Shown here: one piece after another, positions 28,150 through 35,840 of the stretch
Position numbering within the stretch: the stretch's first letter is position 1
How the letters are laid out: every line of letters begins with the position of its first letter
Sequence record: NC_100372.1
Origin: a phage
DNA length: 64,000 bases
Strand: one strand, 5' to 3'
The notes under the pieces: generated by a model
The model's input: the letters and a program-made list of their open reading frames with translations, nothing else
The model's database searches: none
Told to the model about the DNA's origin: nothing
Program-made: the position numbers and the translations under genes

Positions 28150-28544
28150 CGAACCTCCTGATTGATACTCTCATTATAAATATCTATTAGCTGATCAGGA
28201 AGTGTTGACTTCTTACCTTCAGGAGATTGGAGGTAGATAATCTGCTTTTCTTTACCTGCCTTCTCAGCCATATTTAATTTATCCTGTAGATCAGAAAGAG
28301 ATTTTTCAAGGTTTTTAACCTCCTCTGCGTGGCCCATTTTAATTTTGTCGGCTTGCTTTTGTTGTTGGTCAAGGATCCGTTCCCACTTCAACTCTGTTGC
28401 TGACACACCTTCCTGATAAGCATCATTGAGCTTAGAGTTAAACCAATACACGGCCCCAAGATAAGCCATGCCTATAGCCGCTGCAAAAACTAAACCTTTT
28501 ATGATCCCTCTGTATTTACTCATCAATGTTAAGACTGAAATCAT
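28146..28544 (-). CDS. inner-membrane spanin (Rz-like)
   Basis: 132 aa; N-terminal transmembrane segment (GLVFAAAIGMAYLGAVYWF) followed by charged coiled-coil periplasmic domain. Confidence 0.55.
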   Translation of the reverse strand: MISVLTLMSKYRGIIKGLVFAAAIGMAYLGAVYWFNSKLNDAYQEGVSATELKWERILDQQQKQADKIKMGHAEEVKNLEKSLSDLQDKLNMAEKAGKEKQIIYLQSPEGKKSTLPDQLIDIYNESINQEVR

Positions 28545-28568
28545 TTTAAGGCTCCAGAAACGAAAAAA

Positions 28569-28593
28569 CCCCGCAGCTATACAGCTAACGGGG
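28569..28593 (-). terminator. terminator-like hairpin closing the tRNA operon
   Basis: Minus strand CCCCG...CGGGG hairpin followed by TTTTTTCG, between the 89-aa ORF and the spanin gene. Confidence 0.4.
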
Positions 28594-28649
28594 CGGGTTA
28601 AAATTGAGTAACCTAAATAGATCGAAACTAACTAAAAGGAGACTAATAC

Positions 28650-28919
28650 TTATCGAGGCACTCGGTGGATGATTCTGACAGTAACCGCATTCTCATTCAT
28701 CAAGTAAGCATCCACATCTCTGTAAATATAAAACTTCTGCTCGCTATCAACAACACAAGCTACTGCCCCTTCAGAGTTGTCTTCAAAGAAGACCACAACT
28801 GCATCGCAGCTTAGTTCATGATACGACTCTCGAAGATTTACAGCAAGAGGGTTGAAATCTTCACGAAAATCTACAGTATGGGTTGGATTTACACGTTCTA
28901 CAATTTTAAGTGTATACAT
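28650..28919 (-). CDS. hypothetical protein co-transcribed with tRNA cluster
   Basis: 89-aa ORF, RBS AAGGAACC upstream of ATG at 28919, located 46 nt downstream of tRNA-Pro. Confidence 0.4.
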   Translation of the reverse strand: MYTLKIVERVNPTHTVDFREDFNPLAVNLRESYHELSCDAVVVFFEDNSEGAVACVVDSEQKFYIYRDVDAYLMNENAVTVRIIHRVPR

Positions 28920-28965
28920 TTTAAAGGTTCCTTTTGTGTGTATATATTTAAAGTATAACTAAAGG

Positions 28966-29042
28966 TGGTCTCCACGGAGTGATTCGAACACTCGACCTCC
29001 TGATCCCAAATCAGGCGCTCTACCAAGCTGAGCTACGCGGAG
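28966..29042 (-). tRNA. tRNA-Pro (anticodon TGG), CCA encoded
   Basis: Manual fold: acceptor CTCCGCG/CGTGGAG (one G-T), D arm GCTC/GAGC, anticodon stem CCTGA/TCAGG with loop TTTGGGA, T arm GAGTG-TTCGAAT-CACTC, 3' ACCA. Confidence 0.75.
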
Positions 29043-29053
29043 TATTTATTATT

Positions 29054-29128
29054 TGGTGGCCCTGGGTGGAATTGAACCACCGTCTGGCGATTATGAGTCG
29101 CTTGCTTGAACCTTCCAGCTACAGGGCC
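29054..29128 (-). tRNA. tRNA-Met (anticodon CAT; initiator, elongator or Ile2-type undetermined), CCA encoded
   Basis: Manual fold: acceptor GGCCCTG/CAGGGCC, anticodon loop CTCATAA, T loop TTCAATT, 3' ACCA. Confidence 0.7.
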
Positions 29129-29129
29129 A

Positions 29130-29205
29130 TGGTGCTGATGGCAGGACTTGAACCTGCAACCTATTGATTACAAATCAATTGCACTGCCAATTGTGCTACA
29201 TCAGC
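29130..29205 (-). tRNA. tRNA-Thr (anticodon TGT), CCA encoded
   Basis: Manual fold: acceptor GCTGATG/CATCAGC, anticodon stem ATTGA/TCAAT with loop TTTGTAA, T arm GCAGG-TTCAAGT-CCTGC; 1 nt after tRNA-Met. Confidence 0.75.
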
Positions 29206-29211
29206 AAAAGG

Positions 29212-29308
29212 TGCTAGGTGATGGAATCGAACCACCTATGTATTCAACGACTACCTCGTCTATTTTCAGGATTAAAAATCCTCGCCCTTGCCAAAGGGCT
29301 TACCTAGC
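29212..29308 (-). ncRNA. atypical 97-nt tRNA-like element (possible Lys-UUU-type anticodon loop; not a canonical fold)
   Basis: Perfect 7-bp acceptor GCTAGGT/ACCTAGC, D arm GCCC-TTTGGCAA-GGGC, T arm GGTGG-TTCGATT-CCATC, but the central region is two short hairpins (AGGATTTTTAATCCT and GACGAGGTAGTCGTT), about 31 nt between anticodon-like hairpin and T stem; A at position 8; 3' end ACCT not CCA. Confidence 0.4.
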
Positions 29309-29406
29309 GCAATATGTTGACCATGTGGCTAGTCGGCGATGACGACTGTAACATTTGATAATCCGGTTCTGCTTCCGGCTTTCGCTTAATTACAAGGTCA
29401 ACAATG

Positions 29407-29497
29407 TGGCGGAGAGTAATGGAATCGAACCATCATCGAGTCATCCTCAACGGGACGGTTTTCAAGACCGCTTGAGCACCATTGCTCCCTACCCTCC
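29407..29497 (-). tRNA. tRNA-Ser (anticodon TGA), type II with long variable arm, CCA encoded
   Basis: Manual fold: acceptor GGAGGGT/ACTCTCC (one G-T), anticodon stem GCGGT/ACCGT with loop CTTGAAA, variable arm about 17 nt, T arm GATGG-TTCGATT-CCATT, 3' GCCA. Confidence 0.7.
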
Positions 29498-29611
29498 TTT
29501 ATAAATTACACTGATAATGACACTGATTTTCGAGCAGTTAGTGACTAGTATAAACGACGATAAATATCAATGTCATTATCTGTATGATTTATGCATTTAA
29601 AAATATAAATT

Positions 29612-29698
29612 TGGTGGGGAGTGGTGGAGTCGAACCACCCGAGTCGCAATGACAATAGATTTACAGTCTACACCGCTACCTCTACGGGATAACTCCCC
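29612..29698 (-). tRNA. tRNA-Tyr (anticodon GTA), long variable arm, CCA encoded
   Basis: Manual fold: acceptor GGGGAGT/ACTCCCC, anticodon stem GTAGA/TCTAT with loop CTGTAAA, T arm GGTGG-TTCGACT-CCACC, 3' ACCA. Confidence 0.7.
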
Positions 29699-29702
29699 AA
29701 TT

Positions 29703-29777
29703 TGGCACCCCGTACTGGACTCGAACCAGTGTCAACGGCTTAGAAGGCCGCTGCTTTATCCACTAAGCTAACAGGGC
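29703..29777 (-). tRNA. tRNA-Arg (anticodon TCT), CCA encoded
   Basis: Manual fold: acceptor GCCCTGT/ACGGGGT (two G-T), D arm GCTT/AAGC, anticodon stem GCGGC/GCCGT with loop CTTCTAA, T arm ACTGG-TTCGAGT-CCAGT, 3' GCCA. Confidence 0.7.
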
Positions 29778-29835
29778 ACTGGGTGGCTTTCTTTTACACC
29801 TGAGCCGCCAGAAAAGGTGGGAGACCATGTTTATA

Positions 29836-29864
29836 ATATTACACTGTTAGGCAAAGTTTGTCAA
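29836..29864 (-). promoter_or_regulatory. consensus sigma70-type promoter for the tRNA operon
   Basis: Minus strand TTGACA (29864-29859), 17-nt spacer, TAATAT (29841-29836); about 60 nt upstream of tRNA-Arg 5' end. Confidence 0.6.
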
Positions 29865-29873
29865 GAAAATATT

Positions 29874-30212
29874 TTAACTATTGCCAACAGGCTGTATTTC
29901 TGTGGTAAATGGCATAAAAGGTGCTGGTTTTTCAGCCTCTTCTACTACCACCTCTTCCTCTTCACCAAACATCTCATCATATTCTTCCTGCATTCGGTCT
30001 GCCTTATCAAGAACATACTCTGCAATGCTTTGACGAATATTTTGTTTGGTTTTCGGGTCCAACATCAGCTCTCTTAAAACTTTGTGAGCTTCTGGAACCA
30101 TCGCTATAAAAGATTCCTTCATATCAAGAATGTTCTTCTCTAGCTGAATGGCGTTGGACTCCTCTTTCAGAGGTCTGCCTCTACGGCGACGCTTTTTAGT
30201 TGTATCCGCCAT
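29874..30212 (-). CDS. small basic protein with AT-hook-like motif
   Basis: Start set at internal ATG 30212 with RBS GGAGGA (ORF track start at 30332 lacks RBS); N-terminus MADTTKKRRRRGRPLKEE has GRP AT-hook core; acidic C-terminus. Confidence 0.4.
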   Translation of the reverse strand: MADTTKKRRRRGRPLKEESNAIQLEKNILDMKESFIAMVPEAHKVLRELMLDPKTKQNIRQSIAEYVLDKADRMQEEYDEMFGEEEEVVVEEAEKPAPFMPFTTEIQPVGNS

Positions 30213-30557
30213 GTTTCCTCCATTATCACGTGATAGGTGGATTTTATCACGGCAAATACTGATTGTCAAGTTCGCCGCAGGGTGGTATTCCCTGCGACTT
30301 GCCCAGCGTCCTGGACCAGCAAGACCCAACAAGTGGGTTACCAGATACCCATTACCGCGCTCTGGCTCGACCTTATTACAGGTTGGCTGGGGTCACATCG
30401 TCATGTGCTGGCTGCCCCTACCATTTTAAGTGTGGTGCACTATCAAGCCCTCTAAGGGGAACTCAGCCTTCTCCGAACCCTGTTTCAAAGCATCCGGAGA
30501 TAAAGCCATCAAACTCATCTTTAAATTGGATATTCATCATGATACACGAAAACAACC

Positions 30558-32714: not shown

Positions 32715-33269
32715 TTACTCCCCGCTGTCAATAGCAAGACTCATTGCAATACGGTATGCCTCTTCTAATGGTAAGAGTCTCCCCCACACATCCCAACCGA
32801 CATCAAACTGCCTGCCAAACAACTGCTGTGTGGTTCCGTGAGCATGACCGAACAGTTGGACTGATCCGTGAGGCTTTCTGTTCCACTTTGCAAACTGGTA
32901 ATGGCTCATACAGATCAAATTCTTGTTGTGGCGAAGCTCGTAATAATCTACAACCTCATGACCGAACTCTTTCATAATTCTGACAGTCGTCCTTGTGTCA
33001 TGGTTACCACGAACAAGAATAATATGTCCGTTCAACATATTTAGAACATCTGGAAGCAATTTGTTGATATTCTTATCATTAGTGCACGCAATATCCCCCA
33101 AGTGAAACACAGTGTCTGCAGGTGACACAACAGAGTTCCACTTGGTGATGATTCCCGCATTCATACTGTCAAGATTGTGATCATACTGAGATCTGTGTTT
33201 TTGACATGAGTCGAACTCCATTACCCGCTGGTGGAGAAAGTGTGTGTCGCTTGTTACAAAGTATTTCAT
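32715..33269 (-). CDS. calcineurin-like metallophosphoesterase (candidate RNA 3'-phosphatase)
   Basis: Start set at ATG 33269 with RBS GAGGAA; motifs SDTHF (DxH), GDIA (GDxx), VRGNHD (GNHD), GHAHG (GHxH). Confidence 0.7.
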   Translation of the reverse strand: MKYFVTSDTHFLHQRVMEFDSCQKHRSQYDHNLDSMNAGIITKWNSVVSPADTVFHLGDIACTNDKNINKLLPDVLNMLNGHIILVRGNHDTRTTVRIMKEFGHEVVDYYELRHNKNLICMSHYQFAKWNRKPHGSVQLFGHAHGTTQQLFGRQFDVGWDVWGRLLPLEEAYRIAMSLAIDSGE

Positions 33270-33276
33270 ACATTCC

Positions 33277-33687
33277 TCATTTAAGTTTAATGCAGTTTTT
33301 AAGCTGGCGTTCCATACGATCCACAACCCTGTCTGGAACATCATGAATGCTTTTATTACCATGGCGGTTTTCAACCACGATCACGGTATAACTATATCCA
33401 TGACTGATCGCCATGTCAATATATTCTTGCACATATTTTTCTTTTGTAAACGTATTACTTACCACGATACGGTCGTAGCCCATACGCATCATATCTTCTA
33501 CGTTATCTTTGCACCATTTTGCTGCAAGTGTTACTTTACTTGCATCCCAATTGTAATTGCCGTCATCGTCGTACCAGAACATATCGTTCTCAAAATGTGG
33601 ATACAGACCTTCTAAAGATAGCGCATTTGCCAGTGTTGATTTGCCAGACCCTGGTAGACCACGCACGATATATAGCATTTTAGACAT
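33277..33687 (-). CDS. P-loop kinase, polynucleotide 5'-kinase-like
   Basis: Start set at ATG 33687 with RBS GGAGAG; Walker A GLPGSGKST at N-terminus; 136 aa; 7 nt upstream of the phosphoesterase gene. Confidence 0.55.
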   Translation of the reverse strand: MSKMLYIVRGLPGSGKSTLANALSLEGLYPHFENDMFWYDDDGNYNWDASKVTLAAKWCKDNVEDMMRMGYDRIVVSNTFTKEKYVQEYIDMAISHGYSYTVIVVENRHGNKSIHDVPDRVVDRMERQLKNCIKLK

Positions 33688-33715
33688 AGTAACTCTCCGT
33701 TTTAATTTTAATGAT

Positions 33716-33744
33716 AGTATACCTAACTGTTTTGTTAATTTCAA
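33716..33744 (-). promoter_or_regulatory. sigma70-like promoter for kinase/phosphoesterase operon
   Basis: Minus strand TTGAAA (33744-33739), 17-nt spacer, TATACT (33721-33716); a plus-strand TTGACA at 33748-33753 suggests a divergent promoter for the ligase operon, but its -10 is weak. Confidence 0.45.
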
Positions 33745-33787
33745 GTGTTGACACCAAGTTATTTGTGTGGCAGGATAAAGGGACAAA

Positions 33788-34723
33788 ATGACAAATGAGG
33801 AATGTATAATGAAGTATTTTAATGCAGACAACCTAGTTGACAAAGGTCTTGTAACCAGCAGATATTACCCGGATCTTGGGTTAAAGATCTATAAATATGC
33901 CAGAAAAGTATTCTACAACAATTTATGGCATTTGTCTCCTCGTTTGCTGGAGTGCCGAGGCATTGTTGTCGGTAATGAAGGAAATGTTGTGGCATGGCCC
34001 TTCACAAAAGTGTTTAACTTGGGAGAAAATTCCACCAACCTGCCTGACAATAAACTTGTGACGGCGGTAGAGAAAAAGAACGGATTCCTTGGTGTGGTAT
34101 CATCTCATAAAGGTGAACTATTGTTCTCAACAACCGGGTCTCTTGATTCTCCATATTGTAACCTCGCAAAGGAAACAATCCAGGAGCAATGTGGTAATTT
34201 AGATCTTATCAAGAGGGTTATGGGCCATGAAAACATGACATTCATGTTTGAAATTTGTCACCCTTCAGATCCGCATATTGTTCAGGAAGATCATGGCGCA
34301 TATTTGATAGGTTGCAGATATAATGATTCTGGAATAATGCTACCAGAAGCAGCTTTAGATGGGATTGCCAAATACCTTGGTGCAAAACGTCCTCACACTG
34401 TGCGTGAAATTCCGTTCAGCTATGCAAAAGAATTAGCTGCAGAAACAAGAGGTGAAGGGTATATGATTCGTAAGCCTTACTACCCTTATGATCTGCAGCT
34501 GAAGATCAAGTCTCCATACTATTTGGCACGGAAGGCCGTAATGAGGGGTAAAGCTTGGAAGATTTGGGATGATGATATCTTTAAACGTGTTGACGAAGAG
34601 TTTTACGGCATGGTAAACTTCATTCGTAGAAACTACACAGAAGATGTGTGGAATTGCCTCCTGGAGCAGGAACGACGTGAGATACTTGACTGCTATTTCC
34701 ACAACGAGGACTATATGCAATGA
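33788..34723 (+). CDS. RNA ligase, Rnl2-like nucleotidyltransferase
   Basis: 311 aa; motif I EKKNGF (KxNG, cf. T4 Rnl2 KxHG), motif IV EGYMIRKP (cf. EGYVLKP), motif V LKIKS; alternative start at ATG 33809 with RBS GAGGAA. Confidence 0.6.
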   Translation: MTNEECIMKYFNADNLVDKGLVTSRYYPDLGLKIYKYARKVFYNNLWHLSPRLLECRGIVVGNEGNVVAWPFTKVFNLGENSTNLPDNKLVTAVEKKNGFLGVVSSHKGELLFSTTGSLDSPYCNLAKETIQEQCGNLDLIKRVMGHENMTFMFEICHPSDPHIVQEDHGAYLIGCRYNDSGIMLPEAALDGIAKYLGAKRPHTVREIPFSYAKELAAETRGEGYMIRKPYYPYDLQLKIKSPYYLARKAVMRGKAWKIWDDDIFKRVDEEFYGMVNFIRRNYTEDVWNCLLEQERREILDCYFHNEDYMQ

Positions 34724-35070
34724 AGAAGTTGATTGTGTGGCTGGATGACTTGAGAGATCCGTCAAATTATGGGCTCCCAGATGCTCTTTGGCTAAAGAAT
34801 TCCTCTGAGTTTATGGATTTTATTAACGATAAGGGAAAGCTCTACAGGCGCGTTTCTGAGTGGCACATGGACAACGACCTTGGAGAGGTATTTGAAGGGT
34901 ACGATTGCCTATCTATGCTGGAGGAAAAATTTGTATTTGGTAAGCCTCCTGTAGTTGACAACGTGAAGATTTTCGTGCATACTTCTAACCCATCAGCTGC
35001 TCGTAAATTCATGCTTGCTGCTGACTCGTTTAAAAAGTTTGGAATAGAGATTAAACAAAACATCTACTGA
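34720..35070 (+). CDS. hypothetical protein translationally coupled between RNA ligase and sirtuin
   Basis: 116 aa; start overlaps ligase stop (ATGA); no motif recognised. Confidence 0.4.
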   Translation: MKKLIVWLDDLRDPSNYGLPDALWLKNSSEFMDFINDKGKLYRRVSEWHMDNDLGEVFEGYDCLSMLEEKFVFGKPPVVDNVKIFVHTSNPSAARKFMLAADSFKKFGIEIKQNIY

Positions 35071-35078
35071 GGACACTT

Positions 35079-35840
35079 ATGCGACGACTGATCATTATCT
35101 CCGGTGCTGGTTTGAGCGCTGAATCTGGTATCCCAACTTTCCGATCTGGTGGCACTGCAATGTGGGAGAATTTCAGCATCGATGAGGTGTGTAACATCCA
35201 CACCTTTGCCAAGAACTATTATAAGGTTCATGACTTTTACAATGCACGGCGTGTAGCTCTGGGCAGTGTTGATCCTAACCTTGCACATCTCCGGATCGCT
35301 GAATGGTATTCCCGCTGGTCTGGTCGCGTGATCAACCTGACAACCAATGTAGATGATTTGCTGGAGCGTGCTGGTGTAAAACATGAAGATATTTTACATG
35401 TCCACGGATATTTGCCAGAAATAGTCTACGAGGATGATGAAGGGAGTAACGTCATTAAAGACATTGGATACTCTGAGGTAGATGCAAGCAAGTATACTTG
35501 GGTTAAGCCTAATGTCGTGTTCTTCGGAGAAGTAGCTCCAAAGTATACAGACATGTATGACCTGTTGACTTCTCTGACGAGCAATGATATGGTTATCCTT
35601 GTAGGGTGCTCCAACACAGTTATCAATTTTAACTGGGAGCTATTCCCTGCCTGTAATAAGGGGACCAAACTGCTGATCGTTAACAAATACGACTCACAGC
35701 ATTTAGGGGAGAATGGCATTTCACGTAGTGACATTTACCAGTATGAGGATCGCGGCATCCCAGTTTGGTTTAACGGGGCTGTTGACGCTTTCTCTGATAA
35801 AACATTCATTGACATCGTAGAAAACTTTATGGAACTGTAA
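35079..35840 (+). CDS. Sir2-family NAD-dependent deacylase / ADP-ribosyltransferase homologue lacking the zinc-binding cysteines
   Basis: 253 aa; GAGLSAESGIPTFRSGG NAD-binding motif, FYNARR, PNLAHL, TTNVDDLLERAG, catalytic HG (HVHGYL), VVFFGE, all paralleling E. coli CobB; no CxxC pairs in the expected zinc-ribbon region. Confidence 0.8.
   Translation: MRRLIIISGAGLSAESGIPTFRSGGTAMWENFSIDEVCNIHTFAKNYYKVHDFYNARRVALGSVDPNLAHLRIAEWYSRWSGRVINLTTNVDDLLERAGVKHEDILHVHGYLPEIVYEDDEGSNVIKDIGYSEVDASKYTWVKPNVVFFGEVAPKYTDMYDLLTSLTSNDMVILVGCSNTVINFNWELFPACNKGTKLLIVNKYDSQHLGENGISRSDIYQYEDRGIPVWFNGAVDAFSDKTFIDIVENFMEL

Follow-up and report, generated by a model that had tools for sequence, protein, structure and literature searches.

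The tRNA cluster of an rV5-like coliphage, with a predicted tRNA-Ile2 and structured RNAs between the tRNAs

Genome context and layout of the tRNA cluster

To judge from sequence comparison, the window (the whole 64-kb stretch of phage DNA that was analysed) is DNA of an rV5-like (Vequintavirus) coliphage, with phage S127 BCL3 as its closest relative at 99.6% identity. The minus strand carries every gene from 30.3 kb as far as the terminase, including a tRNA cluster at 28562..29864 (minus strand) that is already known, annotated and published for rV5-like phages. The same tRNAs, together with the same codon argument, were described for rV5 by Kropinski et al. 2013 (PMC3606486). The rV5 record (NC_011041) shows this locus in a close relative: the six tRNAs and their order, the annotated "P(tRNA)", the 89-aa ORF68 and the neighbouring spanin and terminase genes all agree, and the flanks are 97–100% identical. 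The record differs in that the CAU tRNA is labelled Met and the atypical element and the spacers are left unannotated. The overall architecture of the original prediction, namely a promoter, seven cloverleaf genes, an ORF and a terminator, was found in full. The cluster is ordinary except for one mislabelled tRNA and for structured RNAs between the tRNAs, with evidence from folding and covariation for three candidate non-tRNA modules (a hairpin, an RNA here termed RNA X and a tRNA-like RNA).

ARAGORN was run on the 64 kb, and its calls were compared with Rfam covariance hits and with GenBank tRNAscan annotations. It returned exactly six assignable tRNAs in the cluster, all on the minus strand, and one unassignable tRNA-like gene (29210–29308), with no further tRNAs elsewhere in the 64-kb window. 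The six canonical genes are as follows:

29703..29777, minus strand: tRNA-Arg(UCU), G73-CCA encoded, 67.8 bits on Rfam, reads AGA (and AGG)
29612..29698, minus strand: tRNA-Tyr(GUA), class II, A73-CCA encoded, anticodon loop equal to that of E. coli tyrU
29407..29497, minus strand: tRNA-Ser(UGA), class II, G73-CCA encoded, called by ARAGORN
29130..29205, minus strand: tRNA-Thr(UGU), A73-CCA, 77.1 bits on Rfam, U32 against C32 in the host
29054..29128, minus strand: tRNA-Ile2(CAU), ileX-type, predicted lysidine-34 and AUA reader, 1 nt after tRNA-Thr
28966..29042, minus strand: tRNA-Pro(UGG), A73-CCA, 82% identical to T4 tRNA-Pro

The GenBank tRNAscan annotations agree with ARAGORN, which upholds the original count of canonical tRNAs. 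With the Rfam tRNA model the Arg, Thr, CAU and Pro genes scored 60–77 bits (E-values 1e-11 to 2e-16), and the class II Ser and Tyr genes surfaced solely under the tRNA-Sec model of the clan, below its threshold. As had been claimed, all six encode an NCCA end (GCCA in Arg and Ser, ACCA in the other four), and a single nucleotide, 29129, separates the Thr and CAU genes. An encoded CCA is the norm in E. coli. The anticodon loops (CUUCUAA, CUGUAAA, CUUGAAA, UUUGUAA, CUCAUAA and UUUGGGA) all have 7 nt with U33 and a purine at position 37; they equal those of the E. coli cognates in five of the six tRNAs, and base 73 is the same in all six.

Several of these traits are shared with the tRNA cluster of phage T4, where tRNAs are likewise grouped on one strand, with small ORFs alongside. 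Five specificities are common to both (Arg-UCU, Ile-CAU, Thr-UGU, Ser-UGA and Pro-UGG). In T4, too, a single nucleotide parts Thr from Ile, and the Ile tRNA begins GGCCCUGUAG, as in the window. A homing endonuclease gene occurs in the T4 cluster (segB) and, as an HNH gene interrupting tRNA-Pro, in that of the relative VB-EcoM-WM; since this relative is viable, at least tRNA-Pro is dispensable. Pnkp and Rnl1 repair genes are also present in T4, and its cluster includes the non-tRNA stable RNAs rnaC and rnaD, the end of rnaC being T-arm-like. However, the single T4 tRNAs are merely 64–82% identical to those of the window, and T4 has Gln, Leu and Gly tRNAs and lacks Tyr. Its Pro and Ser genes, by the tRNA coordinates of the record, end before the CCA, whereas the six of the window all encode it, and rnaC and rnaD (44–52% in global alignments with the tRNA-like RNA or RNA X) have no meaningful sequence similarity to these RNAs.

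Codon usage

The codons of the ORFs in the 64-kb window were compared with those of a 50-kb E. coli sample. AGA, which supplies 29.6% of the Arg codons in the window ORFs and 4.0% in the sample, is the most enriched codon (5.0x), followed by AGG, ACA (3.9x), AAG and, in fifth place, AUA (3.1x). CCU, UCU, ACU and UCA are within the top 13, and AUG stands at 1.0x. The presence of AGA, AGG, ACA and AUA within the five most enriched codons bears out the earlier suggestion of codon supplementation, which is well supported.

AAG, the fourth most enriched codon, also has the largest absolute excess. It is without a clear phage decoder, a point that counts against the codon-supply model. There is also little codon rationale for tRNA-Tyr, as the share of TAC among Tyr codons is 46% versus 48% and Tyr usage overall is raised no more than 1.5x.

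RNA-repair genes and possible defence evasion

A T4-like RNA-repair kit is placed 3–5 kb upstream of the tRNA cluster and consists of the following genes:

32715..33269, minus strand: phosphoesterase, RNA end-healing, annotated "phosphoesterase" in BASEL phage Bas48
33277..33687, minus strand: P-loop polynucleotide-kinase-like gene, RNA end-healing, "polynucleotide kinase" in BASEL phage Bas48
33788..34723, plus strand: T4 Rnl1-family RNA ligase, from Pfam and PHROG searches
34720..35070, plus strand: cyclic-phosphate-processing cREC domain protein, from a Pfam search

The ligase and cREC pair (33788..35070) gave matches to PF09511 (1.1e-14), PF20274 (4.5e-14) and phrog_562 (7e-66).

Defence evasion had originally been proposed beside codon supplementation. 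The tRNAs carry no sequence signature of it, with discriminators identical to those of the host in six of six; because the anticodon loops are host-identical in five of six, a signature of loop escape is missing. Such indirect support as there is comes from the context, the RNA-repair genes 3–5 kb upstream. That defence evasion is nevertheless the main role, with the phage tRNAs replacing those destroyed by immune nucleases, is a tentative reading and on balance an unlikely one, and the same holds for the nucleases that it would name (PrrC, RloC, PARIS AriB, retron-Eco7 PtuAB, Eco2 and others). Experimental precedents are found in T5, whose tRNA-Tyr counters retron-Eco7 (PMC11555353) and whose tRNA-Lys counters PARIS (PMC11464382). 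The likeness to the anti-defence tRNAs of T5 lies in a virulent coliphage with strong host-type promoters and in tRNA-Tyr(GUA), the target of retron-Eco7, which is present in the operon here despite its little codon-usage rationale (PMC11555353, PMC11464382). The nearby ligase, kinase, phosphoesterase and cREC genes imply selection by tRNA nucleases, and U32 of tRNA-Thr, where the host has C32, is in keeping with defence evasion. The tRNA-cleaving retron Eco2 still defends against Vequintavirinae, so that these phages do meet tRNA-cleaving systems, although they do not escape Eco2. However, the T5 tRNA-Lys escapes through changes in the anticodon stem, whereas the loops in the window equal those of the host (PMC11464382). 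With these loops and discriminators the phage tRNAs should be cleavable like host tRNAs unless overexpression suffices, and a canonical tRNA-Lys, the commonest nuclease target, is not among them. The tRNA set also fits the most over-used codons almost perfectly, so that codon supply explains it without defence.

The tRNA-like RNA

29210..29308, minus strand: tRNA-like RNA, cloverleaf with 7-bp acceptor stem, A8 and D arm, conserved in Vequintavirinae

This RNA was present in every Vequintavirinae genus sampled. Its cloverleaf includes a 5-bp "anticodon" stem capped by a short loop, a variable region of 30 nt whose single-stranded flanks are conserved, and a T arm of canonical form (T loop UUCGAUU or UUAGAUU). 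Under the Rfam tRNA model its score is 35.5 bits (gathering score 29). Its stems are paired in 99.7% of cells, with compensatory changes in 9 of 21 pairs; of 500 shuffles, none reached its percentage paired, its both-side-changed cells or its covariation score, and four reached 9 compensatory pairs. Position 8 is A in 17 of 17 variants, and at base 73 A, C and U all occur. The "anticodon" loop has 5, 6 or 7 nt with unrelated sequences across genera. The 3′ end reads A-CCU in the window and A-CAU in L009, with no CCA in either; Seuna-, Mydo- and Henunavirus alone encode one. A BLAST search against 5,426 E. coli genomes gave no match, its signature motif had 0 hits in a scan that covered 185,579 bacterial species genomes, and no description of a tRNA-like RNA in Vequintavirinae phages was found in the literature. 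The labels given to it by annotators disagree, being Lys, Stop(tta), OTHER, ???(atcc) or none. In its behaviour the supposed seventh tRNA appears to be a tRNA-like RNA that is conserved and does not decode.

A working tRNA-Lys(UUU) that reads AAA and AAG, as tRNAscan-SE-based annotations have it, is distinctly improbable. The score above the gathering threshold is in its favour, as is an arm with a 7-nt loop, GAGGA-UUUUUAA-UCCUG, next to GUUGA-CUUUUAA-UCAAU in E. coli lysT, with A73 in both; the enrichment and excess of AAG and the tRNA-Lys label in BASEL phages also agree with it. However, five other genera keep the stems by compensation around the loops UUAUA, CAUCCA and CAUCAAA (5, 6 and 7 nt) and the discriminator varies among orthologues, whereas in those genomes the neighbouring tRNA-Thr, taken as a control, retains a YUUGUAA loop. 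In the innermost pair of the "anticodon" stem U-A covaries to C-G; the loop in the window is thereby 5 nt long. A8 in place of U8, the 30-nt variable region, the lack of an encoded CCA and the split between annotators likewise speak against a tRNA-Lys.

Other assignments were rejected. The ARAGORN fold with an 8-nt loop and the four-base anticodon "atcc" needs an AUUUU/AAAAU stem that is impossible in the Seunavirus and Mydovirus orthologues. For a suppressor (UUA/UCA) or selenocysteine tRNA, UCA occurs solely in Erwinia phage variants, the Rfam tRNA-Sec scores are 23.7–37.6 against a threshold of 47, and the acceptor and T stems have 7 and 5 bp. Matches in Rfam to YrlA (Y RNA-like; 28989–29101, 25 bits against 69) and to "Plastid-ycf2" were artefacts of tRNA sequence.

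Apart from decoding, it is conceivable, at long odds, that the tRNA-like RNA acts alongside the repair kit as a decoy, an inhibitor or a nuclease-resistant surrogate against tRNA-targeting immune nucleases such as PrrC or PARIS AriB. This idea comes from the rV5-type arm, which copies the anticodon loop and A73 of tRNA-Lys(UUU), and from an occurrence in every Vequintavirinae genus sampled and in none of the bacteria scanned.

Proposed transcription unit and spacer RNAs

The remaining features of the cluster and of its upstream flank are as follows:

30241..30269, minus strand: P74, upstream sigma-70-like promoter, TTGACA-17-TAAAAT with TG, 11/12 matches, annotated in rV5
29874..30212, minus strand: homologue of rV5 ORF74, a small gene, 112 aa from Met41 of a 152-aa ORF
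29836..29864, minus strand: P(tRNA) promoter, TTGACA-N17-TAATAT, alternatively N18 with TGTAATATT (extended −10)
29778..29835, minus strand: leader from the −10 element to tRNA-Arg, near-invariant in sequence
29498..29611, minus strand: long imperfect hairpin in the Tyr-Ser spacer, arms 29501–29530 and 29563–29592, z = −4.6
29309..29406, minus strand: RNA X, structured spacer RNA of ~90 nt, 8-bp closing stem of 29315–29326 with 29392–29403
28650..28919, minus strand: 89-aa acidic ORF, rV5 ORF68/gp069, phrog_8729, AGGA ribosome-binding site 9 nt upstream
28562..28594, minus strand: intrinsic terminator, hairpin at 28568–28594 followed by U6 at 28562–28567

The predicted TTGACA-N17-TAATAT motif does lie at 29864..29836, but with matches at 10 of 12 positions it is good and short of the consensus that had been claimed for it. 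It is unchanged in 7 of 7 Vequintavirus genomes compared, and the site is annotated in rV5 NC_011041 as "Sigma70-type promoter; P(tRNA)". As a bare motif it is within chance, with 10 promoter-like sites per 3 kb against 5.8 ± 2.6 in shuffles. The ORF74 homologue between the two promoters matches phrog_3330 over residues 41–151. As P74 lies upstream and no terminator precedes the tRNA cluster, the 5′ boundary of the operon is not fixed, and read-through from P74 into the cluster is possible. The leader has no significant fold (z = +0.73).

At the other end, the hairpin and U-tract of the predicted terminator were confirmed: the hairpin folds at −16.9 kcal/mol (z = −2.85), is 98–100% conserved and is directly followed by U6. 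It sits 18 nt ahead of the i-spanin start codon and was missed by a simple scan because its stem has an internal mismatch. The 89-aa ORF is likewise real and conserved, as the counterpart of rV5 ORF68 and phrog_8729. It occurs only in Vequintavirus, in five homologue clusters, with close relatives as the only identifiable source; Pfam gave no match, and its structure prediction (pLDDT 52) was too poor for a fold search. No minus-strand promoter-like site was seen between tRNA-Pro and ORF68, and no transcriptome was found in the literature for any Vequintavirus.

The Tyr-Ser hairpin is an inverted repeat with two compensatory pairs and with G.U pairs that are valid solely on minus-strand RNA. 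A search of the window for its arm elsewhere gave nothing above chance, and a dispersed repeat was therefore rejected. A weak promoter-like site, ATGACA-18-TATACT, lies within it. Were this site (29576..29547) an internal promoter serving the distal genes, the cluster would form two transcription units, which is very unlikely: it has 10 of 12 promoter matches, but in rV5, nomo and SophiaRose its −35 element decays to ATGGCA, whereas compensatory and G.U pairs preserve the surrounding hairpin, and a processing hairpin at the RNA level fits the fold better than a promoter does. The hairpin is therefore read as probably an RNA processing hairpin, possibly of the RNase III type. RNA X has an invariant core with two hairpins, and its closing stem shows three compensatory pairs in L009. 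Rfam gave no match for RNA X, and BLAST found no homologue of it or of the Tyr-Ser hairpin beyond Vequintavirus proper.

The CAU tRNA

The gene first taken for Met-CAU is, by identity, anticodon arm and codon enrichment, a predicted ileX-type tRNA-Ile2, which should read AUA. Its identity is 76% to ileX, 66% to metT and 64% to metZ; in 5,425 of 5,426 E. coli genomes it matches tRNA-Ile genes, and the E. coli matches listed are all annotated tRNA-Ile. Its acceptor stem is GGCCCUG/CAGGGCC, with the GGCCC start of ileX and ileY including C4-G69 and C5-G68, and the A73-CCA end is also shared. The 15-nt core of the anticodon arm, GCGACUCAUAAUCGC, is identical to that of ileX; the difference lies in the outermost anticodon-stem pair 27-43, which is A.C here and G.U in ileX. 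The C4-G69 and C5-G68 pairs and an ileX-like anticodon stem are determinants for TilS. The BASEL phage records (tRNAscan-SE 2 annotation) label this gene tRNA-Ile reading ATA, and the T4 homologue is annotated tRNA-Ile.

An extra elongator tRNA-Met, as given in rV5 and most GenBank records, is highly improbable: the CAU anticodon and the calls of ARAGORN and older tRNAscan versions point to Met, whereas the closer identity to ileX, the tRNA-Ile annotation of the listed E. coli matches, the shared 15-mer, the missing metZ initiator hallmarks (unpaired C1 opposite A72; GGG/CCC anticodon stem), the homologous Thr-Ile pair of T4, the enrichment of AUA and not of AUG and the tRNAscan-SE 2 call all stand against it. 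Read as tRNA-Ile2 for AUA, the gene fits the codon bias of the phage. In the rV5 paper its Met tRNA was termed "seemingly unwarranted" (PMC3606486).

Proposed working of the operon

From the genes, motifs, structures, conservation and codon statistics, all of which were observed directly, it is likely that the cluster is a one-precursor tRNA operon of an rV5-like lytic coliphage which feeds decoders for phage-favoured codons. Host sigma-70 RNA polymerase would start at P(tRNA), possibly with a contribution from P74 read-through. The precursor would run through leader, Arg(UCU), Tyr(GUA), the long hairpin, Ser(UGA) and the ~90-nt RNA, and then through the tRNA-like RNA, Thr(UGU), Ile2(CAU), Pro(UGG) and the ORF68 mRNA, before transcription stops at the hairpin/U6 terminator, just ahead of the late lysis and terminase genes. 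For release of the tRNAs, host RNase P would be expected to cut at the 5′ ends, with RNase E and 3′ exonucleases also at work and RNase III probably acting on the spacer hairpin. As CCA is encoded, maturation should proceed without CCA addition, and given the host-like anticodon loops and discriminators, host synthetases and modification enzymes should accept and charge the phage tRNAs, with TilS presumably making lysidine on the CAU tRNA. The tRNAs would raise the supply of decoders for codons used 2–5 times more often by the 43% GC phage than by E. coli, namely AGA/AGG, ACA and AUA, and CCU, UCU and UCA through U34 wobble, to the probable benefit of the phage.

The operon as first posed is a rediscovery of a published and annotated rV5-type feature and changes nothing in itself. 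The analysis does indicate that rV5 and all the non-BASEL records of relatives that were inspected mislabel the CAU tRNA as tRNA-Met. In other Vequintavirinae genera a structured RNA of ~190 nt adjoins the tRNA-like RNA, and this RNA and RNA X could be further counter-defence RNAs. If that were true, the tRNA-like RNA, the structured RNAs and the repair genes would together, speculatively, make up an RNA-based anti-defence mechanism.

The tRNA operon and its relatives

Over the region 28300-30100, identity was 99.6% to Escherichia phage S127 BCL3 and 97-99% to many Vequintavirus (rV5-like) coliphages. The operon lies on the minus strand, preceded by small ORFs of early type and followed by the genes for i-spanin, o-spanin and the large terminase. 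In the RefSeq record of rV5 the same six tRNAs and ORF68 (89 aa) are annotated, and so are two promoters: a "Sigma70-type promoter; P(tRNA)", in the position homologous to that of the window, and P74, farther upstream. The six rV5 tRNAs have been described and a codon argument made for them, with AGA at 26% in rV5 vs 5.1% in E. coli O157 (Kropinski et al., 2013; PMC3606486). The operon of the original prediction is an already known feature, correctly observed and in part rightly interpreted. It should also be noted that the locus occurs, at 98-99% identity to rV5-type coliphage genomes, in 18 GenBank records titled "Campylobacter phage" (MG0656xx), which suggests misattributed hosts or contaminated assemblies.

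ARAGORN called the six predicted tRNAs and one unassignable gene, with none further in the 64 kb:

29703-29777, minus strand, tRNA-Arg-tct
29612-29698, minus strand, tRNA-Tyr-gta
29407-29497, minus strand, tRNA-Ser-tga
29210-29308, minus strand, unassignable tRNA-like gene
29130-29205, minus strand, tRNA-Thr-tgt
29054-29128, minus strand, "Met"-cat tRNA (here the CAU tRNA)
28966-29042, minus strand, tRNA-Pro-tgg

Each of the six canonical genes encodes its CCA end, and the Thr and CAU tRNAs are indeed separated by 1 nt; the Arg, Thr, CAU and Pro tRNAs scored 60-77 bits with Rfam. The predicted promoter, TTGACA-17-TAATAT, was present at 29864..29836 (10/12 matches) and is invariant across seven genomes, promoter-like motifs around the operon being not rare (10 seen vs 5.8 +/- 2.6 expected). 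The terminator was likewise located, as a hairpin at 28568-28594 (-16.9 kcal/mol, z = -2.85) followed by U6.

The 89-aa ORF, ORF68, proved to be real, with an AGGA ribosome-binding site and homologues of 62-97% identity with intact reading frames. It belongs to phrog_8729, a family with no assigned function, has only five homologue clusters and no Pfam match, and its AlphaFold model (pLDDT 52) was unusable. It is probably co-transcribed with the tRNAs, as no minus-strand promoter-like site separates it from tRNA-Pro, the gap is 46 nt, and the terminator follows the ORF. At 28904-28952, a 21-nt direct repeat with a GTATAC palindrome (TTTTAAGTGTATACATTTTAA and TTTTGTGTGTATATATTTAAA, plus-strand reading) spans the ORF start. 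Upstream of the promoter, a mechanically called 152-aa ORF (29874-30332) was over-extended; since the family match and the annotation in relatives begin at Met41, its start was moved there, giving 112 aa (29874..30212).

Two relatives carry insertions (L numbers denote homologous loci of other phage genomes). In Escherichia phage VB-EcoM-WM (L003:1167-1589), tRNA-Pro is interrupted by a 113-aa HNH endonuclease gene flanked by tRNA nucleotides 1-25 and 33-77; the loss of nucleotides 26-32 means that this tRNA is disrupted and not neatly intron-split, and going by this phage it appears dispensable. In Escherichia phage vB_EcoM_10C2_SA_NWU, 133 nt (L037:1601-1733) lie between tRNA-Arg and tRNA-Tyr, where the window has 4 nt. 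This insert folds at -36 kcal/mol, has a relative of 72% identity in Av-05 (L011), and is possibly a decayed tRNA.

A conserved tRNA-like RNA

The unassignable gene (29210-29308) scored 35.5 bits against an Rfam gathering score of 29. Homologues occur in Vequintavirus, the Av-05/TH18 lineage, Seunavirus, Mydovirus and Henunavirus (188 phage records, 17 distinct sequences). In a 14-sequence alignment its cloverleaf (acceptor 7 bp, D stem 4 bp, "anticodon" stem 5 bp, T stem 5 bp) was 99.7% paired, with compensatory changes in 9 of 21 pairs; none of 500 shuffles attained the pairing or the covariation score, and slid controls were 31-44% paired. Single-stranded CUGAAAAUA and AAUACAUAGG are almost invariant and enclose a variable hairpin with three conserved loop types. 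The signature AATACATAGGNGGTTNGATTCC had no match in 185,579 bacterial species genomes and 12 in IMG/VR, where the contigs concerned measure 12.7 to 149 kb (11 of them >84 kb), and BLAST found no match to the element in E. coli genomes. We take the element to be a conserved tRNA-like RNA, one specific to the phage subfamily (Vequintavirinae).

The element is most likely not a decoder. Its "anticodon" arm loop differs by lineage: it reads UUUUA in the window, UUAUA in both TH18 and Av-05, CAUCCA in Seunavirus and Mydovirus, and CAUCAAA in the Erwinia phages. The element has A at position 8, a discriminator that varies among A, C and U, and an encoded CCA in some genera only. As a control, the adjoining tRNA-Thr retains its YUUGUAA loop and ACCA end in the same set of nine genomes. 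If the rV5-type arm is read with a loop of 7 nt, it gives UUUUUAA with A73, a near copy of E. coli tRNA-Lys(UUU) (CUUUUAA with A73). The element may thus have a tRNA-Lys-like or a decoy role, which explains why its public labels conflict (Lys, Stop(tta), OTHER, ???).

Structured spacers

Between tRNA-Tyr and tRNA-Ser, the spacer forms a long hairpin (z = -4.6) which is kept in a diverged relative through two compensatory pairs and whose G.U pairs are valid solely in the minus-strand RNA. As a promoter-like site within it has lost its -35 element in rV5, a processing hairpin is favoured as the likely reading. Between tRNA-Ser and the tRNA-like RNA lies RNA X (29309-29406). Locus L009 re-codes its whole 8-bp closing stem, UGUUGACC/GGUCAACA becoming GAGGAUCA/UGAUCCUU, with the core unchanged; with this covarying stem and its invariant 65-nt core, RNA X appears to behave as a discrete structured RNA of ~90 nt. 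Neither spacer had an Rfam match, the closest precedent being rnaC and rnaD of T4, stable RNAs of unknown function within its tRNA cluster.

Other Vequintavirinae genera carry a structured RNA of ~180-200 nt directly after the tRNA-like element, with a closing stem of ~19 bp and compensatory changes in 32 of 60 predicted pairs (L004:2598-2796; L005:2598-2795; L016:1297-1487; L015:1311-1492; L018:1297-1478; L006:1597-1797; L014:1303-1500). It had no Rfam match and no BLAST-detectable counterpart in the window.

A possible role in defence evasion

The proposed role in defence evasion was upheld only in its indirect context. Anticodon loops are the same as those of the host cognates in five of the six tRNAs (tRNA-Thr has U32 for C32) and discriminators equal the host's in all canonical tRNAs; the loops therefore carry no mutation signature such as has been proposed for escape from nucleases. 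Evasion through tRNA supply by overexpression is possible: T5 tRNA-Tyr gives promoter-dependent rescue of infection from retron-Eco7 (PMC11555353), and T5 tRNA-Lys resists PARIS AriB (PMC11464382). About 3-6 kb upstream of the operon, an RNA-repair gene set lies on both strands in divergent arrangement (32715-35840):

32715..33269, phosphoesterase
33277..33687, P-loop polynucleotide-kinase-like protein
33788..34723, T4 Rnl1-family RNA ligase
within 32715-35840, cyclic-phosphate-processing cREC domain protein
within 32715-35840, SIR2 protein

This set, which resembles the healing-and-sealing kit deployed by T4 against PrrC, lends indirect support to a defence role.

Codon supply and identity of the CAU tRNA

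Codons were ranked by phage/E. coli frequency using 73 window ORFs and 47 ORFs of one 50-kb MG1655 segment. The most enriched were, in order, AGA (5.0x), AGG, ACA (3.9x), AAG and AUA (3.1x), with CCU, UCU, ACU and UCA within the top 13. This comparison supports the idea of codon supplementation well, the enriched codons being covered by Arg-UCU, Thr-UGU, Ile2, Pro-UGG and Ser-UGA if U34 wobble, the usual decoding behaviour, is assumed. For tRNA-Tyr there is little codon-supply rationale.

The label "Met-CAU" did not hold, the CAU tRNA being of the tRNA-Ile2 type. All matches listed among 5,426 E. coli genomes were genes annotated as tRNA-Ile, and identity was 76% to ileX, 66% to metT and 64% to metZ. 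Alignment with the MG1655 genes showed a GGCCC acceptor start and a 15-nt anticodon arm core (GCGACUCAUAAUCGC) in common with ileX, and none of the initiator hallmarks of metZ. T4 has a homologous pair, tRNA-Thr and, after 1 nt, a tRNA-Ile starting GGCCCUGUAG, with a junction identical to that of the window, and BASEL phage records label the CAU tRNA "tRNA-Ile, ATA". The share of AUA among Ile codons is 18.8% in the window ORFs vs 5.5% in the E. coli sample; AUG is equally frequent in both. The Ile2 identity of this tRNA explains the tRNA-Met that the rV5 paper called "seemingly unwarranted" (PMC3606486).
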